From an uncultured virus (IMG/VR IMGVR_UViG_3300031994_000060) (taxonomy: Duplodnaviria; Heunggongvirae; Uroviricota; Caudoviricetes): DNA of 24,178 bases. Under the pieces are notes generated by a model, which saw nothing but the letters and a program-made list of their open reading frames with translations, was not told the DNA's origin and searched no databases. The stretch lies in the IMG/VR virus record IMGVR_UViG_3300031994_000060; one strand, 5' to 3'. This document shows positions 6,001-24,178 of the stretch, in pieces. The position numbers and the translations under genes are program-made. Each line of letters opens with the position of its first letter. The stretch's first letter is position 1.

Positions 6001-6889
6001 TAAGATTCCTATAATCACTATCATCACCGATGTTAGCCATAAGCTGATCTAGACTTTCGAATGTTAATGCAATAGCTCTATCTTGGAAAGCTGATTCAAG
6101 ATCTCATAATGTTTCATCAAGTGTACTCTCACGTCCTCATGGATTTCTTGAAGCAATATATAGATTCTTAATCATCTGATTAGCTTTCTTCTCTACAAGT
6201 TTTTTAGTGTTTACATTAGAAAAGATACGATTAAATTCATCCTGTGTAATCGTTTCTATTCATGATCAACCTGTGGTTTGTGCTTTAAGGTTTGGATCTT
6301 GGATACCAAATAACTTCTTAACATTTGGTGTTAAGTTTTCTGTAATATAATTAGTATCTACTTTAGTTGCTCAATATTTATTACTCTGAAAATTATCTTC
6401 TCTTATAGAGTCTGGAACAATAAGATTTAATATCGTAGACCTAACTCAATGTGGTCTATCTGCTACTGTATATTTGTCTAGTTCCTCTTTATCATCTTTT
6501 AATAATTGTAATTGTGTAGGAGTTAGTGTATCCTCATTAGCTTTTAAAGTATTGTATTCATTTAATGTATTAAGATATTCTGCTCTAAGTCCATCAGTAT
6601 TCTGAGATACTCAATCTTTCTTTAATCAATACAAAGCTCTATCAACATCTTGTTTATCTTTAGATAAGAATTTACTTGCAAGTCATACAACTCATTCAGC
6701 AATTCAATCTTTAAATCATGATAACCAAGATTCCTCTTCAGCTATTTTATATGTATTTCAGTCGGCTCATACTTTTGTTCATGAACTTTCTTTAGTCTCA
6801 TCTTGGGGTTCGTTTCAAGTCACTTTAGCTCAAATCTTTTTTGCTCAAGTTTTTAACAATCAATTCATGAAGAACTCGACTACTCACAT
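1..6889 (-). CDS. Giant (>2,290 aa, 3'-truncated by window edge) probable virion/ejected polyvalent protein with zincin-like metallopeptidase domain
   Basis: ATG at 6889 (MGVVEFFMNGLLKTGAKKIG with TGA=Gly). The same frame was open at every segment I translated, down to base 2. HEWFH at 994-980, followed by EEWLAERF and FFNDLWEKMKLLF...LFEDIYEGR, the typical MPTase signature of large phage proteins. Lys/Glu coiled-coil region at about 1300-1700. Confidence 0.85.
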
Positions 6890-6919: not shown

Positions 6920-9241
6920 TTAATACCAGAACGCATTATCTACTACCTCATATCTTGGTTGTGGTCTAGTATCTTGTAGTAATCCTCTAGGATCTTTAGA
7001 TTCCTGCTGTTGCATTGCATATTCCGTAAAGTTATCTACTTCAAATTTATTATGTGATAATCCTAAATGAGTCCAGAATGTCCAAAGACACATAAGCAAA
7101 CAATCTACGAAGTCGTCATGTCATGTCGCTCATTTATATTTAGACTTATTTGTATATTCATTCTTGAACTCAACAAAGTTACCAAGCTGCTCTATAAGTT
7201 GTTTACAATCATTATCCCAGATCTCAACCATTCAGTTATCGAACATCGTCTGTGCTGCTTCCACCATAAGCTTCTTAGGAACACGTTCCTCTGATGGTCT
7301 AGCTCATTTCCTAACATTATCTCCTCATGTCCAGAAATAGAGATATTGGAAGAAGATCCTTTGTCACCACATCACATCAACTACTGCTGGATGTGTAGAG
7401 TCCATAACTTTTAGGATAGGACAGTTATGCATCTTAAGCTCTTCAATAGCCTGTTTAAGTAGTTCGGCTTGCGGAATAAACGAAGATTTATCTTTGAAGT
7501 TAAGTGATCGTTCTTTACGAACAATTACTTTATTTCTCGATTCATCATATCCTGTAGCCAATACGGCTGAAGTATCAGCTGTCTGAGCTGGATCATAAGC
7601 TAGAACTATTCTTTTGAAGTTCGGCTTGATAATCTGTTGGGCATCTCATACACCACTAACAAAATGAGGCTGAGGATCTTGAACAAATCTTACTGGCTGG
7701 ATATATGGCTTGAAGTTCAACACCGCTTGAGATTCGGTAGATCTACAATAAAGCTCACGCATATATCTATCAGGATCATCTGCTAGATTTTTCTTAACCA
7801 TATCTTTATTGATAATCACTTCCACATCGTCAATAGTGTACCTCAATCCCGCACATTCATCAGGGATTATTCAAGTACGCTCTTTCTCTTTTCGTAGTGT
7901 AATGATATGTTGATCAATGTCAATAATTTTTGAGCTTTCTTTTTCGTATTCATTACAGAGTTTTACTGGCCAATCATATATTCTATCAACTCATTCTTCG
8001 TCTTCAGAATAGAATGTAGAGATTACAAGTAATCTCGCTCATTCGTTATCAACGATCGGCATAATCTTATCAACAATTCTTTTAGGGATCAACAACGCCT
8101 CGTCGATAATCACAGCATCTGCTGCATCACCGACTGCTGGAAGTTTTCAGAGTGCTGAATAGAATTTGGTTTGTGCCAAAACTCTTTTCTTACCTTGTGC
8201 ATCATAGGTGATGAGTGATAAGATATGGTTAGCTGAATCGTAATTCATCATCTGTTTAAGCCAATCAAATTCGTTAGTTAATGCACTTACATAGTCCATC
8301 ACTTGTCATACCGCATCAAAATCTTTTGATAAGAAAATTACAGAACGAGGTCTGGTTCCGGCTTTATAGTTGTGTGCCAACATCTCTTTCAAGATCTCCT
8401 GAGATATCAAAAACGTTTTTCAACTACGTCTCGGTGCTAATACAACTGTCCTTCTTCACATACGCTTTGAGACGTCGGATTGTCGCCGCTGGTTGAGAGT
8501 TGATCTCTGATGGTATTTATATTTAGGGTTGGCATTCCATTCCTCTAATGCACGATTCAGCATTTGGTAACGGAGTGCGGCAGTATAGTTATCTTTTACT
8601 GTAACGTTTAAATCGTATTTAGGAAAATAGAAATCGTAGTCTTGACCTACTTGAAAGTCTTGGGCTTGTGAATTAGCTTTAGGCTTGAATACGATATGGT
8701 CATGCTGAGCATATCACATGATTGATTCTTTCATCATGATCAATTCCCCGTCCATCCCCATAGACTGTTGTTTGAGTTCTGAAGATCTTCTGATTGCTTC
8801 TTCTACAACATCAGGGTCTTCCGACTGAAGCTGTTCTTCGATTTCCTCTTGGATAGCTACGATAGGTTTCTGGCATATAAGATACAATTCTTCACCTCAA
8901 GTAGAATTTACATAGATATCATAATTCTCAGTTAGTGCTTTATGAGCTCAGAGCGTATAGTCAGATATGAAACCTAGATTAGATAGTTCGATAACTTTCT
9001 CATACCGAGAGAGTGTTATATTCTTTCGGTGTGGATCGTTTTCTGCATCTTCGTGTGTGACATCGTAGAACGGGAATTTGAATTCATATGGTACTCAATA
9101 GAGATTAGGTATGACAAAAGTCCTGAAGTCAGGATTCTCTTTCTTGAACTTCAAGGCGGCTTGTCCATCGAGCACATCGTTCAGATTAGTACCGTCATAG
9201 ACTAATCATTTAGTGTAATCTCTAGTTAGGTATCAAAGCAT
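6920..9241 (-). CDS. terL: Terminase large subunit (773 aa) with long N-terminal extension
   Basis: With TGA=Gly: Walker A VLAPRRS[TGA]KT (TGA at 8422-8420), Walker B AVIIDEA, coupling motif LLVIST, RNase H-like nuclease VLAYDPAQTADTSAV and C-terminal GHDDFVDCL. Joins the supplied fragments 7364-7561 and 7646-7846. Confidence 0.93.
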
Positions 9242-9725
9242 TCTCTTGGGTTACTGTTTTAGATTCTTCATATAAATCAGCAAGACAACGTCAACAGTTG
9301 GCTGGTCAGACTCACATCGCCGTCCCTAAAAACTGATAAACCAGCTTTCTAAGCTGTGTCACTACCGTCTCGTTCTGGAATGTCGGGTCGGCATTACGGC
9401 ATTCTTCGGCTGCCGTCAAGGCTACAGCATAGTGCTTGAACTGACACCAGTAGTCGTTGTCGATTTTATAGCGTTCGAAAAAATTACGCTGCAAGTCTCT
9501 ACGGAGGTCGTAGAGTTCTTGGCGTTCTTTGTTAGCTTGGACAATCTCTTTACGGATGTCTTCGCGCATAGTATCTTTCTCGTCTTGCGTGGCGTCGATC
9601 TCAGGAACGTTGTCGTGTTCCTCCATGAGATTCATGATCTGCTCTTCTTTGTGATCAGCCAGAGCAATTAGATTACCTATCGCTAATAGGTAATCTAAGG
9701 CTGCGTTACGTGAGGTTTGTTGCAT
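9222..9725 (-). CDS. 167-aa hypothetical protein with YWCQFKH and NCGRC motifs, overlapping the terL start
   Basis: Supplied ORF 9312-9725 extends through three TGA codons (AMGVGPANCGRCLADLYEE...) to TAG at 9224-9222. Confidence 0.85.
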
Positions 9726-9748
9726 CGTGTTATGTTTATTATTATAAA

Positions 9749-10738
9749 TTATAATGATATTCTATTCTTTATTTTATTATATTCCTGTACTTCATGGATA
9801 TCTGGAGTTCATCAATTTAACCCCATAGTTTTAGCATAATCATTAAAGTTATTAACTCATAACTTATCTAGAGCTTTTCTTTGTTCATAATACCATTGAG
9901 TTGATCCTCAATATTTCTTAGCTTCAGCCCTAAGCTGTTCAGCAGTCATTCATAAATCATTAGCCCATTTAGATTCATTTGTACGAATTGCTTTGCTATG
10001 TGGTGTTAGAGCTTCATCTAAAAACTTTTGGTTAGAAGCTTTTAAACGATCTCAGTATGTCCACTTTCTATATGGAACTCATAATTGAGATGCCATGTCT
10101 GGAGTGAGCTTCTGTTTTAGAGAATTGTCATAAGAGAACATAGGATGCAAAGGTGTTGTTGTATCTCAGTCTTTTGTCACAGAGAAATTAACTTCTGCGG
10201 CATTTGTTTTATATTTAGCCATTCCAGGATTCTCAGCAGCATACGCTCTTTGTTGATATGCTGGAACTTCACGACTCTGATTATACATCCTCTTTGAAAG
10301 ATTGTTATTTATTTCCACATGCTTAGTAACGTAATCCCTTGCTTCTTTTGCAACAGCATTTTGTTTCGCAGGAGTATCCGCTTTATTAACTTTATCTAAT
10401 ATAGCCTTCCATCATTTCTGTGCTGCCTTAGGGAGTTGCTTGGCTAGCTCTCAGATACCTACTAATGCAGCCGCGTTATCTACTCATACTGGTAGTCATT
10501 CTCATATAGCATATGCTATTGAGTCGGCCTGCTTAGGCTGTTGCATCTCTCATTTTAATTGAGAAGCTGCTTTATCTATATTCTCTCTGATCTTAGTTGA
10601 GTCTTTACCAGCTAATGCGGCTGTACCTCCAGCTATTCATTTGACGGCTGTTGATCAAATATCTACTATTGGATCTAAAATTACAGATTTAGTTCAGTTG
10701 GCTACTCAGTTGAGGAAGTTGGTTACGGCGTTTGCCAT
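9749..10738 (-). CDS. 329-aa hypothetical protein, Ala/Gly-rich amphipathic N-terminus (possible virion/pilot-like protein)
   Basis: ATG at 10738: MANAVTNFLNGVANGTKSVILDPIVDIGSTAVKGIAGGTAALAGK..., open with TGA=Gly to TAA at 9751-9749. Function inferred from composition and position only. Confidence 0.82.
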
Positions 10739-10939
10739 GGTTGATTTTGTATTGATGTAAAAGGCACCGTGTATATGTGAGAATAAAAATTACAAAGGCA
10801 GGTGTATGAAAGGACAAAGGTTGTGTATGCAAGGAAAAGCACCTGCCGATTTCGAAATTAGCATAATGGCGCATGAAAGGGACAAAACAAAACAGAAACC
10901 CGCCTAGCCGTTACCGGTTTAGGACACCATTACAACTAA

Positions 10940-10967
10940 AGAATAGAAAATTACATAAGAATGTCAA
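10940..10967 (-). promoter_or_regulatory. Candidate sigma70 promoter for the leftward packaging/virion operon
   Basis: Minus strand TTGACA-16 nt-TATTCT, about 200 nt upstream of the ATG at 10738. Confidence 0.5.
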
Positions 10968-11378
10968 GAGAAAATGGGCGCCTTTAGGGAGTGGGTTTTG
11001 GAGGCCGGTTTGGAACTGGGGGGCTAGTTTATCATTTCTTACATACATTGGGGGTTCTACTACTAACTACCTATCTAATATATATATAATAATATATGCG
11101 ATAGCATATGAGAACTGGAACTATAATAAAAATCGGTATGTAAAAATTTATAGATCTACGGAAAAGGTGGGGCGAAGCCCCACACCCAAAATGATTTCGA
11201 TCTACTTAGGAGAAATACTTAAGAGTACAAATGAGGGTCGGCGGAGAGAGATTCCGCCGAAATGAAATTTGCTTAGGGAACCTCTTTGGTTCCCCTGCCC
11301 TCCAGCCAAAAGAAACTAGACTAGAATAGGCAGACTATAACGACGACGGCGACACGGTTAGAGTACCGGATGACTCCT

Positions 11379-11489
11379 ATGAAAGTAAGGAGTAATGTCT
11401 ATGTAATTATTGCTATCACACTGATAGCCGTCTTTGTTATTGCTAACAAAGTATGTCAAGCCTTTGCTTATCGCTATCAAAGTAAGTAG
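11379..11489 (+). CDS. Candidate 36-aa single-transmembrane peptide
   Basis: MKVRSNVYVIIAITLIAVFVIANKVCQAFAYRYQSK. The ATG lies in the loop of hairpin ACTCCT-ATGAAAGTA-AGGAGT. Confidence 0.35.
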   Translation: MKVRSNVYVIIAITLIAVFVIANKVCQAFAYRYQSK

Positions 11490-11504
11490 AAAAAGTATTT
11501 AGTG

Positions 11505-11532
11505 TTGAAAGTCTAAAAAAATATTATATAAT
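11505..11532 (+). promoter_or_regulatory. Candidate sigma70 promoter upstream of the 11711 gene
   Basis: TTGAAA-16 nt-TATAAT. The AT-rich context raises the chance of a random match. Confidence 0.45.
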
Positions 11533-11710
11533 AAATATTGAAAATGTCTAGTATGAAAATAAAAAAAACATTGCTTTAATTTGCAATTAATGAGGAAAAG
11601 AATATAAATAGGTATGCAAGAAAAGGACAAGGGAGATTTAACTTGCTAATAGCACTTAGCCCTTAGACTTGCTACCTTAAAAACTTTTAACTTTTAAACA
11701 ACTAACAACA

Positions 11711-12283
11711 ATGGCTATCGACTTAAACACAGTAAATCCTATCGCCTTTACAGATTGAAAGGAAATTTTAACCGCCTCAAATGGAAGTTTTTATTTAAAC
11801 AATAGACCAGATGGAAACGGACAAATAGAGGGAGTAATTACTTTTTGTTATAATAAGAAACCAAACGAGGAACTAATAAGAACAGAAGAGGGAAACCTTG
11901 AAGAGCTAAACAGGGAACTAAACAACCTCTTAAAACTTGGAGCAGATAATTTAGAACTAAGAGCACAAAGAAACAAGATAAGACACAAAGAAGACTTTTT
12001 GAAAATGATAAGGAGCGATAGAGCTTGGAGCGATTACGAATGTTATGGAATAAATGATATTGAAACACTAAACAGCCGAAGACAATTGGCACTATCTTGT
12101 AAAAAAAATAATGTATGGAGTATAGCATACAAGACAGGAGCACGTTTCGACTTTTGAAATGGAGAGCCTTGAAATTATAATGAAGATATTAATTTTGAGG
12201 AAGATGGTTATTTATTGACTAAGCGGGAACGAAGATACACTTGAAAGGAGAAACAAGAACCAAACGAGAGAAAGGACAATTAA
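11711..12283 (+). CDS. 190-aa hypothetical protein, paralog A of 14115-14639
   Basis: MAIDLNTVNPIAFTDGKEILTASNGSF...YNKKPNEELIRTEEGNLEELNREL...; open with TGA=Gly and aligns end to end with 14115-14639. Confidence 0.9.
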
Positions 12284-12295
12284 GTCCTTTCTCTT
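12266..12295 (+). terminator. Stem-loop overlapping the stop codon, probable intrinsic terminator
   Basis: GAGAGAAAGGAC-aattaa-GTCCTTTCTCTT. Confidence 0.55.
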
Positions 12296-12329
12296 AAAAG
12301 CCACTTTACATCTTAATATAGAAATTACA

Positions 12330-12494
12330 ATGCAGAGAATAATGAAAGACAACAAAGCAAAGAGCAGGAACCCTATGAAAGACACAATACCAGCCGCCCC
12401 TAAGGGGAAAAAAATGTGAAGTAAAAAGAGATTTACAAGACAACTACCACCGCCAGAGCTTGAAGATATATTATGCTGATACAGAAAAGCCTAG
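12330..12494 (+). CDS. 54-aa basic hypothetical protein
   Basis: MQRIMKDNKAKSRNPMKDTIPAAPKGKKMGSKKRFTRQLPPPELEDILCGYRKA; ends within a terminator hairpin. Confidence 0.6.
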
Positions 12495-12513
12495 TCATTC
12501 ACTAGGTTTTTTT
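12485..12513 (+). terminator. Rho-independent terminator, possibly bidirectional
   Basis: AAAAGCCTAGT-cattc-ACTAGGTTTTTTT. Confidence 0.7.
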
Positions 12514-12519
12514 AATATC

Positions 12520-12927
12520 AAAAAAAATTTCGGCAGAGGAAAACCTAGGTTTTCCTCTGCACTCTTTTCCTCTAAATGTTTTTTGTTGTCTTGTGTCTGA
12601 TTGTCAAAAAGGTTTTGTGTTGTCTCTCATCAAAGGTTACATAGGTATGTGTTTATTCGGACGGCTACCAGATGCACGACAGTCGTCGGCATCTGACAGC
12701 CGTCGGCTAAGGTAGTGTTGTCTCTGATCCGCGGGCAAAAGGTGTGGCTGCTAGGGCAGCCACTTCGTGTCCATGCTCACTGTGTTCGCGACAGGCTTCC
12801 AGCCTGTCCGCAAAAATTTTATTCTAAAATTTTTGTAGGAATTTTTTTGTCTCTAATCTGTGGAAAAAAAATTACATAAACAAATTTCATTATGTCAATA
12901 TAACCAGGCGATTTCCGTGTCATTTTT
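12520..12927 (-). ncRNA. Candidate ~400-nt structured non-coding RNA
   Basis: Five GC-rich or perfect hairpins and no credible ORF. Lies between a minus-strand promoter (12934-12962) and a minus-strand hairpin plus U-tract (12560-12520). Tandem G-U pairs form only on the minus strand. Confidence 0.5.
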
Positions 12928-12933
12928 TCACCT

Positions 12934-12962
12934 ACTATATACACTTTCGTTCGCTGTGTCAA
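12934..12962 (-). promoter_or_regulatory. Near-consensus sigma70 promoter
   Basis: Minus strand TTGACA-cagcgaacgaaagtgta (17 nt)-TATAGT. Confidence 0.7.
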
Positions 12963-13555
12963 TGATTTTTTTGCTTCATTTTTCCAATTTTTTTGAGGTT
13001 TATTTCGGTATAAATATTTTTATCTGTACGATTTTTAACATAGTTCCCAGTTTCCATATGATAAGTAATATAATTTTTTTTATAGTGAAATAAAGGTTAG
13101 AGTATTGTACATATTAGAGTGTTTTTTTATTGGATTATCTAGTCCAATTTTGTCAAACTTTTTTTTGACAAAACATACCCATAAAAAATCGTGTTTCATA
13201 GAAACATACACAAATGTTTATTTCATTATAATTTTTTTTATATTACTTATTAGTTCTCATCTAACATATCATATAAAAATAATATATATAAATATATTTA
13301 TAATGAAATAAATAATAAAAAAATAAAAAATCAGATTAAATATTTCTATTGACAAATCATTTTTTTCTACCCCCAAAGTATAGAAAAAATTGTATTTCGA
13401 GCGACACCCGGAATTTGAAATCCCAGTTCAGAAGCCAACCTCATTTCCAACTGTGTAAAGATATTTTTTGACAACCAACTAACTACAGATTTGCTTATGT
13501 AATTTTTATAATTTGTAAATATAAATAAATTTATATTAACAATTTAATAATATGT

Positions 13556-13665
13556 CTAGCCAAAAAAAATCACAAGAAAGAATGGAAAAATTTTTGGCGG
13601 TACCCAACCACCAAAACTTTTTCTCATTCTTTCAATGTAATTTTTCTTGTCTAGTAGTGTTGTCT
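13556..13665. repeat. Long imperfect hairpin, copy 1 (copy 2 at 14672-14781)
   Basis: GAAAGAATGG...TTTTGGCGGT-accca-ACCACCAAAA...TCATTCTTTC, followed by GTGTTGTCT. Confidence 0.75.
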
Positions 13666-13699
13666 GTTTTGGTTGTCGGACCCATTCAGGGATCCGCCA

Positions 13700-14043
13700 A
13701 CCAACTGAGTTCGTTCCTACTCAGACTCTCCCCAGCGGTGTGACAACCCCCGTGGTTTTCACACTTTCCGGAGACGGCACCTCTAGTGCCTCAAATGGAA
13801 GGGCGCTCGCGCGCCCCACACCCCACTCAGGGAAACCCCCTCTCCTGTGGTTTCCCTGAACCCCCTTCCGGTGAGAAAGTCGGCGGGACAAGGAGTGTCT
13901 GCCAACACTTGACTCAGCAGACACATCGTTATTGATTTGGTTTTCTTTCCAAGAAAACCGCCCGCCTTGCCACAATCCGTAATGAAAGTAAAGAGAAGCA
14001 GGGGCCGTCCCTAAAGGGCACCCTCCCCTGTTCTCTTGACTTT
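13700..14043. ncRNA. Candidate GC-rich multi-hairpin structured RNA or ssDNA element
   Basis: At least seven consecutive stems in a GC-rich island flanked by very AT-rich DNA. ORFs across it have non-native composition. Confidence 0.45.
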
Positions 14044-14114
14044 CAAAACTATTTTGTGGCAATATTAAAAGTGTTATTTTTTAATAACATTTTTATTCTT
14101 TAAACATTATCACA

Positions 14115-14639
14115 ATGTTAAATCTAGAAAACATTTCAACAGAAAAATTCCCAGCTAAAAAGGAATTTCTTATCTGTAGTAATTGAAGCTTCACCATTTC
14201 TGAGAATGGTATTGTTAGGTTTACTTATGCTAAGAAGCCTAACAAAGAACTTATTCGTTCAGAGAATGCTAATCTTCACGAGCTTAACAAAGAGCTTAAA
14301 TGTGCTATTAAATCTAAAGCGGATATGTATGAGCTTAGAAGTATCAGAAGTAAGATAGCTTCTAAAGAAAAATTTATTGAAGTTATTTCTAGGGAAATGG
14401 TACCAGCACAATATGAATGCCGAGGATTAGATAACGAAGTAGCATTCAAAATGTTTCAAGAGCTTGCTAAGAAAGCTAAGAGTAATAATGTGCGAAGTGT
14501 AGCTTATGCTACAGGGCTTAGGTTTGAAGAAGAAGAATGTCCTAATGAAGACATTGAGTTCAACGACCCAGACGGAATGCTAATTACTTATCGGGAGTGG
14601 CATTACACAGGGAAGAAGAGTTTAAGAGAGGCCGAATAG
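14115..14639 (+). CDS. 174-aa hypothetical protein, paralog B of 11711-12283
   Basis: MLNLENISTEKFPAKKEFLICSN[TGA]SF...YAKKPNKELIRSENANLHELNKEL...; extends supplied ORF 14325-14639 upstream. Confidence 0.9.
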
Positions 14640-14655
14640 GCTTCTCTTTTTTTTT
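14624..14655 (+). terminator. Rho-independent terminator
   Basis: AAGAGAGGCC-gaata-GGCTTCTCTT followed by a T-run. Confidence 0.8.
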
Positions 14656-14671
14656 GTTATTAGCAATAGGT

Positions 14672-14781
14672 ATATCAAAATAAATTACAAAGAAGAATGG
14701 ATAAAATCTTGCGGGTCCCCAACCCACAAGATTTATATCTCATTCTTCTGATTGTAATTTTATTTTGTTATCGTGTTGTCT
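14672..14781. repeat. Long imperfect hairpin, copy 2
   Basis: GAAGAATGG...AATCTTGCGGGT-cccca-ACCCACAAGATT...TCATTCTTC, followed by GTGTTGTCT. Confidence 0.75.
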
Positions 14782-14928
14782 AGTAGCTATGTGGCTACTA
14801 CTTTGGATCCTACTATGGCTACTACTTTGACTAGCCGTGTGGCTAGCTGAGGATATATATGTATATATTATATAATGTAGGTAGAGGATTATTCACACCG
14901 AATGGTAGGTTCATAAAGGAGAGAAAGA

Positions 14929-15030
14929 AAAATGAAATGAAATGAAATGAAATATAAATGAAATAAAAAAAATGAAAATAAAAAATAAAATGAAATGAAA
15001 TAAAATAAAAATAAAATGAAAATAAAAAAT
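14929..15030. repeat. A-rich degenerate (AAATG/AAAAT)n microsatellite
   Basis: aaatgaaatgaaatgaaatgaaatataaatgaaataaaa..., about 100 nt with no C. Confidence 0.85.
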
Positions 15031-15054
15031 GTTTTATATTATATATGAATTATA

Positions 15055-15270
15055 ATGAAAGATTTTGTACAAGTAATTACACTATTGAATGCAATACATC
15101 TTCCAGAAGAAATGGATTGTGTATATTATATTGAAGATAATGAAGTGAAGGTTGAAACATTTGGTTGATATGAAATAGTATGTGAATGTAATGATAGTTG
15201 ATATGAATATCTGAATGAAAGATTAAATGAAAGATTAAGATTGTTTAAAGATACATATGAATTGAATTAA
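15055..15270 (+). CDS. 71-aa acidic hypothetical protein
   Basis: MKDFVQVITLLNAIHLPEEMDCVYYIEDNEVKVETFGGYEIV...; two TGA=Gly, TAA stop. Confidence 0.75.
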
Positions 15271-15296
15271 TGTTTTAGATTTTAATATATATTATT

Positions 15297-15533
15297 ATGT
15301 TGTATGAAGTATTATTAAATCCAATGAATAAGTTAGTCGCTGAAGTTATTACTGAAACATCTGATAACTTGAATGAAACTACACTTGAAACATTAAAGAT
15401 TTATAGAGTGTATTGACAATGAACATTGAAAGAGAAATCGATTTTATTATATGAAGCACAATGTGTTGACGACGAATTTGAAATTGAAGATATCAAATGA
15501 TTAGTTGATGCATTTGTTCCATTTGAAAAATAG
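15297..15533 (+). CDS. 78-aa hypothetical protein
   Basis: MLYEVLLNPMNKLVAEVITETSDN...; three TGA=Gly, TAG stop. Confidence 0.75.
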
Positions 15534-15558
15534 GTTTTTATTTTATAATATATATACT

Positions 15559-15867
15559 ATGTCTTACGAAAAAGAAAACAGCAACTACGAATTCCTACTT
15601 GAATGGAGTGACCCAGTTCCATTCACAGGTTATGGATTGGAGAATGGTGCAAGAAGAGGTACTTGGCAAAGAGGTTATACATTCTTCCTTGACGAGTATG
15701 ATACAAGAGAATGAGTTCATTGTATTGATTTGAGAGTAGTGCAACCGCATACTTGAAGTGATATATTGATTGATACATATGATACATATGAACAGCTTGA
15801 AGATAGTTTGTTCCTTATATTACAATTTTTATGAACTGTATCACCAGTGTTACACATAGAGGATTAA
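15559..15867 (+). CDS. 102-aa hypothetical protein
   Basis: MSYEKENSNYEFLLEWSDPVPFTGYG...REGVHCIDLRVVQPHTGSDILIDTY... Confidence 0.8.
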
Positions 15868-15886
15868 TTTCCTCTATGTAATTTTT
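15854..15886 (+). terminator. Stem-loop over the stop codon, probable terminator
   Basis: ACATAGAGGA-ttaatt-TCCTCTATGT then aattttt. Confidence 0.5.
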
Positions 15887-15905
15887 ATATAATAAAACAA
15901 CCACT

Positions 15906-16073
15906 ATGAAAGACTACGAAGCACTTGGTATGTATTGAATACTAGTAGGTATTTGTTGATTTATCTTCATTTGATTATGAGTATGGAAGTGATTTTTCAT
16001 ACCGCTTGGCATCACCACTTGGTGAGTGTCAATGTATATATTGTTTTATGTGATATCACATAAGGATTTTTAA
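15906..16073 (+). CDS. 55-aa two-TM membrane protein
   Basis: MKDYEALGMYGILVGICGFIFIGLGVWKGFFIPLGITTWGVSMYILFYVISHKDF (six TGA=Gly in hydrophobic helices). Confidence 0.75.
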
Positions 16074-16091
16074 TTACTAATTCAAACCGCA

Positions 16092-16466
16092 ATGATTAGA
16101 CTATGAACACCAGACGATTACTTACCATCTCACCAATTCGAATGGTGAGAACCTGAAGACCTTAGAGGTAATCAATGTAGCAAACCTAATAAAGGTATTG
16201 TTAATTGATATAGACAAGCTTTAGTCAACCCGGATACTAGGAATAGATTATTCCTTGAAGAATCTATATCATATGATAAATGATTTATGTGAAGCAGATT
16301 AAGATTACTTGTAATGGATTGAATGACTTGAAGAATTTCATCTATTGCACAAGTAATGTCTAGAGAAGAAGCTGAACATTTGATTGATGTAATCATAGCT
16401 TATGATAATTGAACTAATGATACAATAGTATATGACGAACATTGAAAAGCTATTGATATAGAATAA
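16092..16466 (+). CDS. 124-aa hypothetical protein
   Basis: MIRLGTPDDYLPSHQFEWGEPEDLRGNQCSKPNKG...; open with TGA=Gly. Confidence 0.8.
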
Positions 16467-16493
16467 TAATTTATATGGATTATTCATACCGAA

Positions 16494-16628
16494 ATGCAGA
16501 ACATAGAAGAATTACAGCAGACAGCAGACGAGCTTAAGGAAGCTAGAGATAATTCCGAAGACGAAGACGATTGGAATTATTATGATTATAAATTGCTTAA
16601 GGTGTTAAAAGCAATTGAAGATTTATAG
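16494..16628 (+). CDS. 44-aa acidic hypothetical protein
   Basis: MQNIEELQQTADELKEARDNSEDEDDWNYYDYKLLKVLKAIEDL; ATACCGAA-ATG start context. Confidence 0.7.
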   Translation: MQNIEELQQTADELKEARDNSEDEDDWNYYDYKLLKVLKAIEDL

Positions 16629-16655
16629 TTTTTTATATTTCTAAATAATATTAAT

Positions 16656-16847
16656 ATGATAAATTACAGAAGTTATTGGATAGTACAAAAAGGTACTAAC
16701 TCATTTTTAATCCTTGATCAGGATAAAATGCCAGTGGATATTCAAACTACATTATCGAAGAGTAAACATCTTATTGATGTGATACTTGATTCAACGGTAT
16801 CATCTACAACAATAGAAGATATCAATGAACTAGAAAATCTATGTTAA
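16656..16847 (+). CDS. 63-aa hypothetical protein
   Basis: Supplied ORF; fits operon spacing and has the shared upstream TTTTTATATTTCTAA motif. Confidence 0.75.
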   Translation: MINYRSYWIVQKGTNSFLILDQDKMPVDIQTTLSKSKHLIDVILDSTVSSTTIEDINELENLC

Positions 16848-16876
16848 GGTTTTTATATTTCTAATATAATATCACT

Positions 16877-17131
16877 ATGAAAACAATTACAGCATTGAAA
16901 CCTAAATTGGTTTCAGCCAAAGAGATTGCAGATCTCAAAACAAAATTCTGAAAATTAAAAACAACGGTGTCTACCTACACAACAAAGTATGGTACACTAT
17001 GTACATTGTATACTTTCTGGCAATGAAAGGAGAAGGCAGGACAGTTCCATGATTATTGATACTGAAAAGTATTCAAAGACTTTGTACATAAATTGTATTA
17101 TACAGACAATGAGAATTGGCTGGATAATTAA
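16877..17131 (+). CDS. 84-aa hypothetical protein
   Basis: MKTITALKPKLVSAKEIADLKTKFGKLKTTVSTYTTKYG... Confidence 0.75.
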
Positions 17132-17168
17132 TCCAGCCTTGTAATTTTATTTGTTTAATTCAAACCGA

Positions 17169-17516
17169 ATGATGGAACAATCAGAAAAAGATATCGCATC
17201 TGAGATTACAGATATACTTATGAAATGTTATCATGCGATCTGAGATAGTGATACAACTAATGAAGAGATTGATAATATTCATAATGAATTGAAGAAGGCA
17301 TGCAGACTTATCCATAATTGATTGTGAGAAGATGCCCAAATATATCTATCCGCACTTGCATCACCTGAGATTAAAGATAAGTGATCAGCATGGCCTGTGT
17401 TTGTTAACATGGTATTGCTTCAGTATATTATCTCAATGATCCATAATGAACTAGAAGACGATGATCAACCCGAAGAAGACAATTCACTCAAGAAACTTTT
17501 TACATTCAATGAATAA
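17169..17516 (+). CDS. 115-aa hypothetical protein
   Basis: MMEQSEKDIASEITDILMKCYHAIGDSD...; open with TGA=Gly. Confidence 0.78.
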
Positions 17517-17518
17517 CA

Positions 17519-17881
17519 ATGAACATCATAGATTTACCACAACCAGATCGAGAACATTTTAACAGTGATCAGGAATATTATTTGCAAGATGTCAAGTCGT
17601 GATTAAAGGCATGGTATTATTATACAGTTATGGACTACCTAAAATGATACACACCACTTGATCTTGATAAAGAAACTTATCTTGCAAATATAGAAAAGTT
17701 TTATAATATATATGTACAACATTGTATAGACCATAACATCGTTGCAATGCCAAGGAGGGAAGCTTTCGAATGAAAGGAGATCCAAGAGATCCTTGAGAGA
17801 TGGAATGATGTATATGCATATACAGAGTTTGATCCTGATATTAAAGTTAAAATCAAAGACCTGGAAAGTAACGATGCCTAA
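17519..17881 (+). CDS. 120-aa hypothetical protein
   Basis: MNIIDLPQPD[CGA]EHFNSDQEYYLQDVKSGLKAWYYY...; starts 2 nt after the previous stop. Confidence 0.78.
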
Positions 17882-18017
17882 TCAAAAAGAAGTTACTTCC
17901 CAGCACTGGAGCTGATGACTACCGTGCTGGTGTATGGATGGACAAAGCCTAAAGCTTTGAACATTCCATTTGTATAAGCGGACATGATGCAGTTTTAATT
18001 CTTAATCAATAAAGACC

Positions 18018-18062
18018 ATGGCTTGTTGAAGAAAGAAGAAAAGCTGAGGAAAGAGAAAGTAG
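18018..18062 (+). CDS. 14-aa basic microprotein MACGRKKKSGGKRK
   Basis: Has the same T-rich then ACC-ATG start context as neighbouring genes, and sits in the main unpaired stretch of the structured region. Confidence 0.5.
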
Positions 18063-18377
18063 GATTACTTTCCCTTTCGATGGATAGAGTAACTCTAAAG
18101 GTTATGATATCCAGATTTGTTTTTCATTGTGGTAAAAGGTAAAAGAGTAAATCTTGAGAATGTCGTAACCGTGAGGCCGACAAGGGTTTCTGTATCCTTC
18201 ATGGTTCTCAAGATTTATGTCTGAGAGATCCCTAAAGGGTTGATCAGGCAAGGTAGTAAGTTGTAAAAATCCTTGACCTAGATAAGTCTTTTGGTTGTTT
18301 GGCTTATCTAGGGTATGGTTGTCTGTCCCTAAAGGATAAGATAATCTATCATTATTATTTTGCAGAAACTAACAATT

Positions 18378-18417
18378 AGCCAGACGGTATGTCCCACTCA
18401 TACCGCTTGGCTTTTTG
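18378..18417 (+). terminator. Terminator-like hairpin
   Basis: AGCCAGaCGGTATG-tcccact-CATACCGcTTGGCT then TTTT. Confidence 0.6.
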
Positions 18418-18445
18418 TAATCTTTTATTCTTAATTGAACCGACA

Positions 18446-18799
18446 ATGTATACAATCAAAGCACCTAATGGAGACAAACTAACAGTTGAATTAAAGTATT
18501 GATCTTATGCAGATAATCATAATCTGTATATAGGATTAGTAGTTGATAAAGATTATGAAGATCATGAAGTGTTTAAATGAGAACCTTGGTGTGATCTCAC
18601 AGTTAATATAGGTAGTTTATTACCTAATGAAATAGCATTAGATGTAAATAATTTTCCTGATGCATTAGAGTTTGTAAAAGAAAATAATATAGCAAACTTA
18701 ATAAGATATACTACATCAGGATTTGTAAAGTATCCTATTGTAAGATTTACAGATGAATTCTTTAGAGAGAATTCATTACATATATTAGCACAGTGTTAA
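18446..18799 (+). CDS. DUF4313-like protein (117 aa)
   Basis: YADNHNLYIGL...GEPWCDLTVNI...IALDVNNFPDALEFVKENNIA...SGFVKYPIVRF matches the DUF4313 pattern as I remember it; needs HMM confirmation. Confidence 0.75.
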
Positions 18800-18871
18800 T
18801 AAAACATAGTCGTTGTAGATAGTGGTAACGACGATGTCTTATTATATCTTTTATAATCTTATACCGAACAC

Positions 18872-19207
18872 ATGTACACAAAAATTAAGAACATTGCTAT
18901 TGTAATTTTATTAGTAATCATTGCTTGATTATTAGTAGTTGCATGCACAAGAAAAGCTTGAGCTGTTGATCCTCAAGATGAACAAGCTAAAGCATTAATG
19001 GATGAAATAGATTACTATAAATATTTGCTTGAGTATGAGAAACAAGCTTGAGAAGATTTCAGAACAAAAGAAGTTGAATGCTGAAAAGCATTGAAAGAAC
19101 TTCATAGTAAATGAGTTTATGCTAGAGCTGAACAAGAGATAGCTAAACAAAAGATTAATGAGTTATCAGGATTGTCGGGTTTTATTCAGCAGAGCCAACT
19201 GCAGTAA
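18872..19207 (+). CDS. 111-aa membrane-anchored protein or lipoprotein with coiled coil
   Basis: MYTKIKNIAIVILLVIIAGLLVVAC: basic N-terminus, hydrophobic helix, lipobox-like VVAC. GGGTTTT lies near the 3' end. Confidence 0.8.
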
Positions 19208-19686
19208 CAAACCCAGAGCCTGAACAAACCGAAGTGTCTGAGGAAACCAAAGAGCAAATAACAAAAGTGCTTGAAACATTTGATCCTACACCAGTGACAA
19301 CAGAAGAACATAACTGAGTGAAGATCATACATGAATGATTTTCAAAAGACAGTGAAGTTCAGGCGATGGTTCAATATGCTTATGATGTATGATGAATGGA
19401 GCTGGTTAAATTAATTGAATGTGAGAACTGAAATTGGAACCCAATGCTTCAATCATCAGTAGTTAAGAATTGAGTAAGAGAACCATCATATGGATTATGT
19501 CAGATTCATAAGAAATATTATCCACATATCATTAATGATCCGAACTTCTGGAGTGATTGGAAAGTTCAGATAGATTATTGTAAACAGTTAATGGATAATG
19601 GAACTAGCTTCTATGGACCGACAAGAAAGATTAAATGACAGTATTGTTATAATTATGTTGAAAGTCGTTTTACTTTTGTAGAATAA
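19177..19686 (+). CDS. Lysozyme-like/lytic transglycosylase domain with P/T/E-rich linker, probably expressed as a -1 frameshift fusion to 18872
   Basis: LIECENGNWNPMLQS...REPSYGLCQIH resembles the SLT catalytic Glu and GLMQ motifs. The frame opens at 19159 and has no ATG until about 19366. Confidence 0.72.
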
Positions 19687-19692
19687 ATAACT

Positions 19693-19947
19693 ATGTTAAT
19701 TCAATGTTATAAACTACCGCAAGTTGAATACAAATATGTTTCATCATTAGATGAAAATGATTATGTAATTATAATTAAAAGACTTATTGATTGATCTTGA
19801 TCTAAAGTAAAGTGTGATTACTACGATACTGAATGAGCAGGATTAGAAGTATTGTCTTTAGGTAATTGAGAACATAGAGAAATTATTCAAGCTAATGATA
19901 TAGAAGATTGTCCAACACTTAAATGATTTTATATCGTAAGAGAATAG
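19693..19947 (+). CDS. 84-aa hypothetical protein
   Basis: MLIQCYKLPQVEYKYVSSLDENDYVIIIKRLIDGSGSKV... Confidence 0.75.
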
Positions 19948-19949
19948 AT

Positions 19950-20168
19950 ATGGATCTACCAATGACAGTTAGAGAATTAAACCGTTTTATCCAAATCCAA
20001 ATGGAGAAATGAAATGGTGATAAACATGTCTTTATATCATCAGACGATGAGTGAAATGATGTACATTGATTGTATTATCAGTTCAGTAAATTTGATGAAG
20101 ATGATTGGTATAAAGAAACAGTAGAGGATGCAGGTTGCACCCTTGATAATAGTATCTTATTATGATAA
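19950..20168 (+). CDS. 72-aa hypothetical protein (MTVRELN..., SSDDEGN motif)
   Basis: MDLPMTVRELNRFIQIQMEKGNGDKHVFISSDDEGNDVHGLYYQF... Confidence 0.78.
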
Positions 20169-20199
20169 GATAGTTTTTTATTTTTTATTCTAAACCAGA

Positions 20200-20661
20200 A
20201 TGAAACTAAACCAGAAAGAAATCAACATGTTAGCACAAACATTAGTTGATGACATTTATGATCAAAACAAATTCAGAGAACTTGCAGAAGCTGAAGGAAG
20301 GAAAGCTTATGAAAAGTTCTTGAAAAGAAAAGAAGTCAAGGAGATGATTACTTTTCTAAAGAAACATGAAGAGGTTAATTACCTTGAACTTGATAGTAAG
20401 TTCCTATGAAAAGATTGGAGCTGTAATAGCTGTTGAGATTTTTATTTTGGTTATGCATCAAACAATCTTAGGTTTTGATTGGATAATAACAATGGTGTCT
20501 TAACAGGTTTCATGAACTGAGCATCAAAGAAGTTCCCTAGTAGACACGAAATAGAAAGAAAAGTAAGAACCGAATTAACATATAGAATGTTATGAGGTGA
20601 GGAACTTAAAGATGTAATTGATTGATTAAAGAATTCTATCAAGAAAGAATTTAAATTGTAA
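20200..20661 (+). CDS. 153-aa hypothetical protein
   Basis: Supplied ORF 20200-20409 reads through TGA (FLGKDWSCNSCGDF...) to TAA at 20661. Confidence 0.82.
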
Positions 20662-20671
20662 TTAGATTACA

Positions 20672-21049
20672 ATGAACCAAACCGCAGTAGACCAAAAGAT
20701 GCGAGAAGAACTTAATGCTAAATATAAAGATAGAGTTAATGAATTGTGTCACTGAGATTTGAATGTGATCGATTGAAAGATCATCATCACAAAGTGGTGA
20801 TGATCAAACAATCGTATCATATTTCCAGATGAAAACCAATTAAGTATGTATCTTGATTGAGTTGAGTGACAGGTGCATATAAGTCAACGAGCACAATACC
20901 AAGAAGATTTGAAACATATAATATATAAATGTAATTATTATATTAAAGAGATTAAAGCCAATCCTGAATATTTTAGTGATGATCGAGATGTAGATATCAT
21001 TACAGCATTTCAAAGTACTAAAGATATTTTATCTAAGTATGTAAATTAA
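20672..21049 (+). CDS. 125-aa hypothetical protein
   Basis: MNQTAVDQKM[CGA]EELNAKYKDRVNELCHGDLNVIDGK...; three CGA codons. Confidence 0.78.
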
Positions 21050-21050
21050 G

Positions 21051-21389
21051 ATGTTAAAACCTAAAGAAGAAATGATTAGTAAAGTAACAGAAATGTGTCC
21101 AGCATTTCCTATATATCTTTCATGAGAAGAAATGGAAAATATCTTATTCGAATGTAATGAATGAGATATGGACTTCTTTATAGAAGAACTTATATCATCA
21201 GCAGGAAGTTGAGACTGATCATTGAACATATCATACTTTGATGATAATGCTTGATGTATATGTCTTGTTCAAGATGTTGATTACAATATGCAATTCAATT
21301 CAGCTGAAGATGTAGTAGCTACTATATTATATTGGCAAGACAGAGTTAATTATTTTAAAGCAAAATTTTTACAACTTAAAAAAGATTAA
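21051..21389 (+). CDS. 112-aa acidic hypothetical protein
   Basis: MLKPKEEMISKVTEMCPAFPIYLSGEEMENILFECNEGDM... Confidence 0.78.
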
Positions 21390-21390
21390 G

Positions 21391-21702
21391 ATGGTAACAA
21401 AAAGAGAAGCACTTGATGCAGAACTAATTGATAATACATTTCCACAAGACTTTACAATAGCAGATATGTTTTGAATATCAGCTATTAAAGATACATATGA
21501 AAGAGCTTTTAATGAGTGGAAAGATGATATCAAATATATGACAGCATTGTCAATGGCATTAAACCATAAGATATTTGAATGGTATCATAAGGATAAAAAG
21601 ACAGCACAAGTATATAATGATTTGTTTATTGAATGTGATGATTACATTCATGAGAACTTTAAGTGAGATGATCTCACATATTATTTTAGAGTTACTGATT
21701 AA
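21391..21702 (+). CDS. 103-aa conserved phage hypothetical protein
   Basis: TFPQDFTIADMFGISAIKDTYERAFNEWKDDIKYMTALSMALNHKIFEWY...ENFKGDDLTYYFRVTD resembles a widespread phage family (recalled, not searched). Both TGA codons fall at Gly positions. Confidence 0.85.
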
Positions 21703-21706
21703 CAAT

Positions 21707-21928
21707 ATGGAAGGACGAAACATGAAAGTCAAAGACTTACTTAATGCACTTAAACAATATGATCCTGAAGCATGAGTTACATTAAGATTATGGCATCATG
21801 AATATGGTGTAGATACTTGATGTACTGATAATTACATTCTCAATATCTATCATTATACATATGAAGATGAAGAGACAGGATGAGAAGTTACAAGTAAAGA
21901 TATTGTTTTAGATCTTGATGTAAATTAA
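21707..21928 (+). CDS. 73-aa MKVKDLL-family hypothetical protein
   Basis: MEG[CGA]NMKVKDLLNALKQYDPEAGVTLRLW... Confidence 0.75.
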
Positions 21929-21929
21929 G

Positions 21930-22130
21930 ATGAAGGTTAAAGACCTAATAGAAAGATTACAAGATTGTAATCCAGATGCAGAAGTAAGTATATGATATAA
22001 CGATACATATACAGATACTGTAAAACATATTATTAAAGTAGAACCTATTGATAAGATACATAACGAAGCAGTTGTTTATATCTTTAACTACTGATGAGAT
22101 GAAAAAGAAAGAACTTCTTGAAGCTTATAA
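21930..22130 (+). CDS. 66-aa MKVKDLI-family hypothetical protein
   Basis: MKVKDLIERLQDCNPDAEVSIGYNDTY... Confidence 0.75.
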
Positions 22131-22356
22131 TAAATTGTTAGAAGAAAAGTTAGAAAGAGAAAGAAGAGATAATGAAGAATTTATGGACTTTCAATATGAT
22201 CAAGAGAAAAAAGAAATGTATATGATTACATATAAAAAATGATATCCTAAAGATTGGAAGATGTATGTATTTACTTATTGATGAATAGATACTTATTGAA
22301 GATTGATATTTAATGATAAGTGAGAAATGATAACACCTGTTTATAATGATAAATAG
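22099..22356 (+). CDS. 85-aa hypothetical protein
   Basis: MKKKELLEAYNKLLEEKLERERRDNEEFMDFQYDQEKKEMYMITYKKGYPKDWK... Confidence 0.75.
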
Positions 22357-22363
22357 AATACAA

Positions 22364-22648
22364 ATGAAAGTAAAAGAACTTATAGAAAAACTAAGTAAAA
22401 TAGATTGAGATATGGAAGTATATATTGATGATTCTGAATACTGACCTTGAACATTTGATTATATAAGAAAATGAATAAAAGCTGAGTTTGAATGAAACTG
22501 ATATACACTAATTTATTCATACGATTTGAAAGATATAGTTAATACGAGAATGTCTTGGAATGAAAGAGGTAAACCAATAGTATCAGAAAAGAAAATAGTA
22601 ATTCTAAGTGATTGGTGCTTAGAAGATAAATCAGATTTATTTATTTAA
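22364..22648 (+). CDS. 94-aa MKVKELI-family hypothetical protein
   Basis: MKVKELIEKLSKIDGDMEVYIDDSEYGPG... Confidence 0.78.
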
Positions 22649-22656
22649 TTAAAGTA

Positions 22657-22743
22657 ATGAAAGCACCACTACGAATGCAGATAATAATGTTTATATGAAG
22701 TATATGTCAGATTTTATTATTTATTTATATACTATGAAAGTAA
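22657..22743 (+). CDS. 28-aa hydrophobic membrane peptide
   Basis: MKAPL[CGA]MQIIMFIGSICQILLFIYILGK; fills the intergenic gap and overlaps the next start. Confidence 0.5.
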
Positions 22744-22916
22744 AAGAATTAATTAAACAGCTTCAGGAATATCCTGAAGATATGGTTATTCAAATCCAGA
22801 TATATGAAAGTGATGATCATTTTGCTTGATGAGATTATGAATATTATGATCCTGATCTTAAAGAAATGTATAAGGATGATGATGAATGACAACATAAATT
22901 TTTAGTTATATATTAA
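22734..22916 (+). CDS. 60-aa MKVKELI-family hypothetical protein
   Basis: MKVKELIKQLQEYPEDMVIQIQIYESDDHFAGGDY... Confidence 0.75.
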
Positions 22917-22928
22917 TTACAAACCGAA

Positions 22929-23510
22929 ATGCACTTTGCAATGACCGTAGCTTTGCCAGAAGGTGAATCAGTTTGAGATTTACTTGATCCATTTTGTGAA
23001 TCAATTTATTCATGGCACGAGGATTGATCAGTAACTTGACCAGATTGAAAAGTATATCCTGAATGAGACTTTGCACAATATACTTTTTATGATTGGTTAT
23101 GTTTATGATGAAGACGAGATGGATATATCAAATGAAAGAGATGAGCATATCCAGAGATAGCTTTTGATCTTTGAGAAAAAGATAAGAGATATCCAGAGAT
23201 AGATTGGAAATGGAGATGATCAGCTTTCATTAAGAAGTATATCAAATGATTTGGTTTTGATAAGAAGCTTAGTAAATATCCACAAACATATTCATACTTC
23301 GATCAGAACTATCTTGATGAGAATTGAGAACTTGATAATTATCCTGAGAGATTTAATTACATCAAGAAGAGATGAGAGACACGAGAACAAAATGAATATG
23401 ATGAAGCAGCTTATCAAAAAGAAATTAAGGAACGAGAGAAGAGAATTAAGAAATGGTATAACAGTATACCAGATGATTATGTAATTTATATTATTGACTA
23501 TCATATCTAA
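22929..23510 (+). CDS. 193-aa conserved phage protein (DWxxxGGRW ... DxHI family)
   Basis: MHFAMTVALP...FYDWLCL[TGA][TGA]R[CGA]DGYI...IPDDYVIYIIDYHI. Confidence 0.85.
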
Positions 23511-23893
23511 TGAAAAACTTTTTAGACGATCAATATATATTTGATGCAGTTGAAAAACTTACAGCAGAATTAGATGCTTCTGATTATAGAGAAGAAGAAG
23601 TAGCTAATAAGATATATGAAATGTTTAAAGTAGATCATATTGAAGCTGGTATTTATACAGCTTTATGATTTTTTTGAACAGCTTGATTTATGGCAGGTGA
23701 TTGATGATTAATGGATCGGGAAATCACTAGAGAACCTGATCATTATTGTTGTGTCGCTTGATGATTTGATTTCGAATCATATCGATCACTTAAACTTACA
23801 ATGAAGTTCTTAGATGAAATAACAAATGTTTTATTTAAGTATGACAAAATATCAGAATGAAACATACAGACAGACGATATCAAAAAAGAATAA
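23510..23893 (+). CDS. 127-aa hypothetical protein
   Basis: MKNFLDDQYIFDAVEKLTAELDASDY...; TAATG overlap with the upstream gene. Confidence 0.78.
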
Positions 23894-23901
23894 AAGCTAT
23901 C

Positions 23902-24178
23902 ATGGATCCATGTATAGCAGTGTTGAAACAAACACATTTACAAGATGATTTAAACTTATGATATCTAACAAGAAGCTGGTGTACAGCTAACAGTAGATGA
24001 GTAGTATTAGAAGTATATTGACAAGATAAAGATAGATTACATTGGAGTGTTAACTTAATTGAATGTTATGATATGGAAGATATGTTAGTGATCTTAGAAA
24101 GAATAAGTATCATACCAAAAGTTTTAGATTTATATGCAGACCGACATGCCAGAGCAACCAGTAGTTATAGAAATATTT
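23902..24178 (+). CDS. Hypothetical protein, truncated by window end
   Basis: MDPCIAVLKQTHLQDDLNLGYLTRSWCTANSRGVVLEVYGQDK...; open to the end. Confidence 0.7.

Follow-up and report, generated by a model that had tools for sequence, protein, structure and literature searches.

Codes with a reassigned sense codon are very rare, and have so far been computational predictions for uncultivated bacteria. The closest described case is that of the Absconditabacteria (SR1), predicted to read UGA as Gly and both CGA and CGG as Trp (Shulgina & Eddy 2021, eLife 10:e71402, PMC8629427), a code restated in PMC13092985. Decoding is credited there to tRNA-UCG and tRNA-CCG, with tRNA-GCG reading CGU and CGC (PMC8629427). 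Here we analyse the genetic code of an uncultured tailed phage (IMG/VR record IMGVR_UViG_3300031994_000060), available as a stretch of 24,178 nucleotides that we call the window. An earlier reading of this sequence (the original prediction) had proposed that CGA is read as Trp, and the Shulgina & Eddy prediction it cited is rendered accurately. We find it very probable, judging from codon-level comparisons, that the phage genes follow the whole Absconditabacteria code, with UGA as Gly, CGA and CGG as Trp, CGU, CGC, AGA and AGG as Arg, and UAA and UAG as stops.

Phages with non-standard codes have been described before. In two assemblies AGG was predicted to stand for Met, as in their recoded Bacilli hosts (PMC8629427). 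Like the phage of the window, they carry the sense reassignment of a host and no decoding tRNA, presumably depending on host tRNAs, but codon and amino acid differ. In our case the sense change sits on top of a stop reassignment, and codon-level alignments follow it across a phage clade of great depth in the large terminase subunit, TerL (26-79% identity). Phages using code 25 have been predicted for Absconditabacteria and Gracilibacteria (mBio 2023, PMC10746230), and these share with the window the dense in-frame TGA and the UGA = Gly of the host. In that study, coding density with tables 11 and 25 was the basis for assigning codes, and “CGA”, “CGG” and “arginine” occur nowhere in its text. 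Finally, the stop-recoded gut phages of Borges et al. (10.1101/2021.08.26.457843) also have a non-standard code, but infect hosts with the standard one, and a role in late-gene regulation was proposed. In the window, the code matches a recoded host clade, and module-specific use was ruled out, as TGA and CGR (CGA or CGG) are found in both gene blocks.

Compared with the Absconditabacteria themselves, the three codon meanings are the same, and in the phage AGA is the main Arg codon and GC content is low (0.28-0.39). The reassigned Arg codons are similarly rare, with 34 CGA and 9 CGG per 10,000 in the phage, and below 37, mostly below 7, in the bacteria (PMC8629427). Unlike in the bacteria, CGA equals or exceeds TGG in some of the phage relatives. 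The published prediction concerns bacterial genomes, whereas here we deal with a clade of phages, and a tRNA-UCG or tRNA-CCG was found neither in the window nor in the loci of relatives or the complete relatives.

For bacteria the code is already known, and what is added here is CGG as Trp, the clade-wide nature of the trait, and the members rich in CGR. Our literature search, which excluded supplements such as the tables of PMC8629427 and those of PMC10746230 on Zenodo, found no report of CGA or CGG as Trp in a phage. A phage clade in which CGA and CGG exchange with TGG at invariant Trp positions adds corroboration of the code from another type of genome, and indicates that viruses follow even the sense-codon changes of their hosts.

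Codon-by-codon comparison of TerL

The TerL gene (6920..9241, minus strand) encodes 773 amino acids (aa) and contains 20 TGA, 4 CGA and 2 CGG codons. It matches the phage profiles phrog_2 (E 1.5e-18) and phrog_38 (E 2e-9). A protein search retrieved 54 homologues with 32-96% identity. At the DNA level, relatives comprised 25 metagenome loci and 3 viral loci, one of the viral loci duplicating a metagenome locus, which leaves 27 for alignment. In IMG/VR, a scan with the single TerL protein found 0 relatives and a profile scan found 3, while tblastn gave no TerL match among GenBank phages. Public protein entries of the clade (P0001-P0081) were predicted with TGA as Trp, and Trp encoded by CGA or CGG appears in them as R. 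The main tests were based on DNA, because “W” in database proteins is ambiguous and may stand for TGA.

The original prediction had placed a CGA directly before the Gln of the terminase W-Q motif, and this is borne out. The codon (8483..8485, read 8485-8483 on the minus strand) is residue 253, adjacent to the invariant Q254 and around 17 residues before the Walker A motif PRRSGKT. In the 27 relatives this column has TGG 14, CGG 6 and CGA 5, with 2 gaps and nothing else. Column 424, where the window itself has TGG, is made of TGG 9, CGG 5 and CGA 10 in relatives, with no other codon. CGA, CGG and TGG are thus freely exchanged at conserved Trp columns of TerL. A profile search of the PDB with TerL returned weak herpesvirus terminase matches (E 0.005), located over Walker A and the nuclease motif, with the W-Q column uncovered.

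As for the remaining sites of the gene, all on the minus strand, the CGA of residue 72 (9026..9028) faces TGG 6, TAT/TAC 6, CGA/CGG 3, CAC 1 and ATT/ATC 2 in relatives, and the CGG of residue 79 (9005..9007) faces TGG 9, TTT/TTC 7, CGG 4 and Leu/Ile codons 4. The CGA of residue 450 (7892..7894) is mostly opposed by TAT/TAC (15), followed by TGG 4, CGG 3 and GCA 1. At residue 578 (CGA, 7508..7510) we found TGG 6, TAT/TAC 5, CAT 3, CAA 3, Leu codons 3, and one each of TTT, CGA and GCC. The CGG of residue 252 (8486..8488) lies in a variable column, with CGA 7, TGG 1, TGA 3, Ala/Thr/Lys codons 14 and 2 gaps, and supports neither Trp nor Arg. In the 54 protein homologues, these 4 CGA and 2 CGG columns appear as mixtures of W and R, with Y or F in distant members.

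Considering whole classes of columns, seven have at least 50% TGG (165 codons), and contain TGG 118, CGA 16, CGG 8, Tyr/Phe codons 18, CGT 1 and others 4. On the contrary, ten columns with at least 70% AGR (AGA or AGG) or CGY (CGU or CGC) hold 257 codons, with 0 CGA and 0 CGG. Lowering this threshold to 50% gives 19 Arg columns and 477 codons, of which 3 are CGA or CGG. CGA and CGG make up 139 of the 953 Arg-box codons in the TerL genes compared. In well-occupied columns, the partners of CGA are TGG (23%), Tyr codons (11%) and AGR (3.7%), and those of CGG are TGG (29%) and AGR (4.8%). The partners of AGR are AGR itself (43%), Lys codons (13%) and CGY (7.5%).

Site scoring and independent profiles

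We also scored the aligned residues of relatives. With site-averaged BLOSUM values, W ranks first for CGA (+20.7 vs -11.7 for R, 9 window sites) and for CGG (+11.2 vs -6.6 for R, 4 window sites), and the controls come out correctly, with TGG as W, AGA and CGY as R, TGA as G and TAY as Y. An aromatic residue is the best fit at 8 of 13 CGR sites and 33 of 48 TGG sites, but at only 3 of 186 AGR/CGY sites (Fisher p 3.7e-9 for CGR against AGR/CGY). The best fit is R for CGY and AGA and K/R for AGG, with R or K first at 111 of the 186 AGR/CGY sites. This indicates that CGU, CGC, AGA and AGG stay Arg.

The profiles phrog_2 and phrog_38 were built without this clade. When CGR is translated as W, the score of TerL against phrog_2 rises from 67.9 to 71.2 bits, with the match beginning at residue 229 instead of 243 and now running across the W-Q motif. 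Against phrog_38 the score goes from 37.6 to 39.7 bits. Both effects are small, and in the predicted direction. The score of Pfam Terminase_6N (17.6 bits, below the 22-bit cut-off) stays the same under the W reading, as this domain begins after residue 253.

Paralogs and other open reading frames

Two plus-strand genes of the window are paralogs, with 44% identity across 173 aligned positions. Paralog A (11711..12283) has 190 aa, with CGA at 12077 and 12230 and CGG at 12224, and paralog B (14115..14639) has 174 aa, with CGA at 14421 and 14493 and CGG at 14592. The original prediction had seen a reciprocal exchange between them, and both codons and alignment agree with it: TGG 12116 of A pairs with CGA 14493 of B, and CGA 12230 of A with TGG 14598 of B. 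The other two CGA codons oppose aromatics, as it had also claimed (14421 of B against Tyr of A, 12077 of A against Phe of B), and CGG is indeed kept at both 12224 and 14592. Aromatics are around 9% of each paralog, so the chance of four out of four would be roughly 0.09^4. As a control, 17 codon-partner rows were inspected, in which AGR/CGY arginines of A and B oppose R, K, T, A, S, M, Q, H or E, and 0 aromatics. The codons of relatives are TAT, TAT, AAG and CGA opposite 14493, and TGG and CGA opposite 14592.

The open reading frames (ORFs) of the window were compared by BLASTP with all ORFs of the loci of relatives, and the matches were mapped back to codons. Outside TerL, the 39 CGA codons of relatives oppose window TGG in 10 cases, Tyr in 8, Phe in 4, and Arg codons in 0. 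A giant protein adjoins TerL (2..6889, minus strand, at least 2296 aa, continuing past the window edge) and holds 120 TGA, 3 CGA and 1 CGG codons. Its CGA at residue 886 (4234-4232) opposes TGG in 3 of 5 relatives, and its CGA/CGG residues 611, 876 and 1840 are in variable non-aromatic columns.

Three small ORFs of the plus strand could be compared through their protein homologues, which contribute six supporting sites, some of them in charged contexts. The first (20672..21049, 125 aa; CGA 20702, 20888 and 20984) has 17 database entries, one being that of the window, with R 9 and W 8 at column 11, W 15 at column 73, and F 7, W 2 and R 8 at column 105. The next (22929..23510, 193 aa; CGA 23115, 23382 and 23433) has two homologues besides the entry of the window itself, which show H and W at column 152, F and Y at column 169, and only R at column 63. 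The CGA that the original prediction had listed at 23115-23117, as the W of a putative DWxxx-GGR-W motif, is present, and there the two homologues have R and locus L009 has CGG. In the last one (23510..23893, 127 aa), the homologue column of CGG 23717 reads R, W, W, R, I and F, so that W, W, F and I oppose it. The column of CGA 23783 reads R, R, R, N, C and V, and with N, C and V opposite, this site is without support.

In total, the window contains 28 CGR sites (22 CGA and 6 CGG) against 71 TGG, meaning that CGR accounts for around 28% of its Trp codons. Trp or aromatics are opposed by 18 of the 28 sites in relatives or paralogs, one of these 18 being mixed (14421). Columns dominated by Arg or Lys, the outcome that the original prediction had named as contradicting it, were found at 0 of the 28 sites when homologue residues were tabulated. 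Its central claim, that CGA reads as Trp, is upheld by codon-level comparison with relatives in both TerL and other proteins. So is the view that table 25 alone mistranslates these genes, since CGA and CGG behave as Trp codons and not as Arg. CGG, which had been left aside, is by the same comparisons also a Trp codon, with only 6 occurrences in the window, fewer than CGA.

TGA as Gly and public annotation

Across 29 ORFs there are 275 in-frame TGA codons out of 6471 (42.5 per 1000), with GGN at only around 18 per 1000. In the same scoring of aligned residues, Gly comes out best at 110 of 178 TGA sites, and in the TerL codon alignment TGA is paired with GGN in 28% of cases. These values indicate that TGA is read as Gly. 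Table 4, with TGA as Trp, was rejected, as TGA columns are Gly and the W score at these sites is strongly negative (-421).

In two ORFs, the database entries that are identical to the window have W at 14 of 14 and 6 of 6 TGA positions, and the Gly-codon columns of the 54 TerL homologues have 29-36% W. Standard gene-prediction tables mistranslate this phage and the related ones. Public calls have around 4% of residues wrong, with Gly given as Trp, while about one in four genuine Trp residues is given as Arg. Such miscalled residues degrade homology searches and structure prediction.

Alternative explanations

Some observations weigh against Trp at CGA and CGG. “W” rows from protein databases can mean TGA, with only the DNA-based tallies unambiguous. 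The TerL frames of all relatives are open only if TGA is read through, and the codon alignment is thus without a standard-code homologue. Of the 23 comparable sites, five are in variable non-aromatic columns (giant protein 611, 876 and 1840; TerL 252; 23783), and five of the total 28 (17166, 17549, 23115, 23875 and 24142) compare only with CGR itself. Despite the Tyr in paralog A, position 14421 of paralog B opposes AAA, AGA, GAA and ACA (K/R/E/T) in four relatives. Finally, a decoding tRNA and a host link were not found in the window, the loci and genomes of relatives, or one-genome-per-species contigs.

If CGA and CGG were ordinary Arg codons, table 25 would be enough, and the juxtapositions of Trp and Arg would be chance substitution or alignment noise. 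The five variable columns fit this explanation, as do several CGA codons in charged helix-like contexts (KEIKE[CGA]EKRIKK, YDRR[CGA]EEEF). However, charged-context sites too oppose F/Y or W/R in homologues, with F and Y opposite KEIKE[CGA]EKR. CGR is found in 24 of 165 codons of TGG-majority columns and in 0 of 257 of conserved Arg columns, and an aromatic best fit is far more frequent at CGR (8 of 13) than at true Arg sites (3 of 186). Furthermore, going from CGA to TGG takes two base changes, yet this exchange is recurrent in many columns. Plain Arg is for these reasons very improbable. A mixed decoding, in which CGA and CGG are part Trp and part Arg according to the tRNA pool of the host and weakly constrained sites tolerate both, would accommodate the five comparable sites whose columns favour neither residue. 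Only experiments exclude ambiguous translation, as noted by Shulgina & Eddy (PMC8629427). On the other hand, CGA and CGG occupy the invariant Trp columns 253 and 424 of TerL, an essential protein in which Arg at these positions should be harmful, and they are missing from conserved Arg columns. We leave mixed decoding a slight chance.

C-to-U RNA editing would turn CGG into UGG and give Trp by the standard tRNA, with decoding unchanged. The same editing would convert CGA into UGA, which is Gly. CGA columns, however, have TGG and Tyr/Phe codons as partners, not TGA or GGN, and CGA is only 0.2% of TGA partners. We know of no editing system in phages or in bacteria of the Absconditabacteria type. 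Editing was rejected because an edited CGA would be read as Gly, and has next to no chance. A different question is whether the code is as described, with a host outside Absconditabacterales that decodes in the same way and belongs either to the Gracilibacteria or to a lineage not yet described. Searches of one-genome-per-species contigs gave no host link, and CGG as Trp has been predicted for part of the Gracilibacteria (PMC8629427). In PMC13092985 and PMC8629427, Absconditabacteria are the sole group for which UGA as Gly is described together with both CGA and CGG as Trp, and we regard another host as rather unlikely.

Clade, decoding and host

With CGA and CGG taken as Trp, the correspondence of codon and residue holds, according to the alignments, through the whole phage clade. 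Its members have TerL identities of 26-79% to the window, contigs of up to around 88 kb, and a giant protein adjoining TerL. The distant relatives include complete viral records with direct terminal repeats, and CGR as Trp was traced to relatives with TerL identity as low as 26-34%. In ORFs of at least 150 aa, and with small samples in each case, CGA reaches 14.6 per 1000 compared to 10.0 for TGG in L023, and 11.6 compared to 6.4 in L024, while in L022 CGA and CGG together reach 14.7 compared to 7.3.

That CGA or CGG rivals or exceeds UGG in several members suggests active selection for CGR-encoded Trp, which could perhaps come from misreading of UGG by the UGA-decoding tRNA-Gly(UCA). If true, the code would lock the phages of this clade to recoded hosts. 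We give about even chances to the wider proposal of a deep clade living in a triply altered code (UGA as Gly, CGA and CGG as Trp), the first viral case, with this selection and host lock-in included.

As for tRNAs, ARAGORN finds none in the window. The 27 loci of relatives have a single one (tRNA-Glu, in L017), with none in the others. In two complete relatives of around 87 kb (G001 and G002), ARAGORN and Rfam revealed no UCG or CCG anticodon, and these genomes carry tRNA-Trp(CCA), tRNA-Leu(UAA) and aberrant tRNA-like genes. A third complete relative, of 66 kb, has no tRNA. Given the lack of tRNAs in the window and of UCG/CCG anticodons in the complete distant relatives, CGA and CGG would presumably be decoded by host tRNAs with these anticodons, charged with Trp. 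The one-genome-per-species contigs had no match to the TerL profile, nor to a 23-nt stretch of the tRNA-Trp of a relative. We infer an Absconditabacteria host from the code alone. The CGR-Trp code could serve as a sequence-only marker to assign phages to recoded hosts.

The aberrant tRNA-like genes of G001 and G002 have unusual forms. One, with a 6-nt anticodon loop, lies beside tRNA-Trp(CCA) (L030 1579-1651). Another is a 59-nt tRNA without an anticodon arm (L031 1501-1559), and a third, of 117 nt, has a 56-nt insert in the anticodon region (L035 1501-1617).

Gene layout and noncoding structure

The window is a fragment of a tailed-phage genome of around 86 kb, with the database entries that match it located on a contig of 86,321 bases. 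The predicted large terminase, with its Walker A ATPase and nuclease domains, places its packaging with that of tailed phages (Caudoviricetes-type). Under table 11, only 7 ORFs of at least 100 aa are seen. With TGA read through, the ORF calls split into a minus-strand block, with the giant protein, TerL and 2 further ORFs, and a plus-strand array of small ORFs (around 15000-24178). The two blocks are separated by paralogs A and B plus around 3 kb of noncoding DNA. Tandem AATGA/AAATGAAAT-type units form an AT-rich array (14921-15025) immediately 5' of the first small ORF on the plus strand.

The order of giant protein and TerL is kept among relatives. In this clade the giant protein has around 2300-3300 aa and always comes after TerL (for example, L003 12348-22190). 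It has no match in Pfam or PHROG, and the copy of the window holds an HExxH-like stretch, HEWFH. Some TerL homologues are much longer, with 909-1194 aa (P0030, P0036 and P0038; L008 2028-5552), and have precomputed Pfam assignments to PF14528 and PF14890. We take these to be intein or homing-endonuclease families, and the long TerL genes may be interrupted by inteins.

Between the paralogs, two GC-rich noncoding blocks (12480-12850 and 13555-14060) fold far better than shuffled sequences. The first has a z of -8.6. For the second, z is -10.3 with a minimum free energy of -206 kcal/mol on the plus strand, and -10.9 with -240 kcal/mol on the minus strand. Terminator-like hairpins are enriched in this region, with 10 found and 2.8 expected. 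No Rfam match was found in the window at gathering thresholds; with E up to 1, the stretch 10700-15100 yielded nothing beyond sub-threshold noise. These blocks may represent either a structured RNA not described so far or an array of hairpins. Conservation at the DNA level among relatives is limited to window positions 10938-11087 and 13214-13313. A structured block (z -6.2) is also seen in a relative, at L002 2990-3750, which is syntenic with the paralog region; in this block, hairpins are flanked by recurring G-tracts of the GGGUGGG..GGUGGG type.

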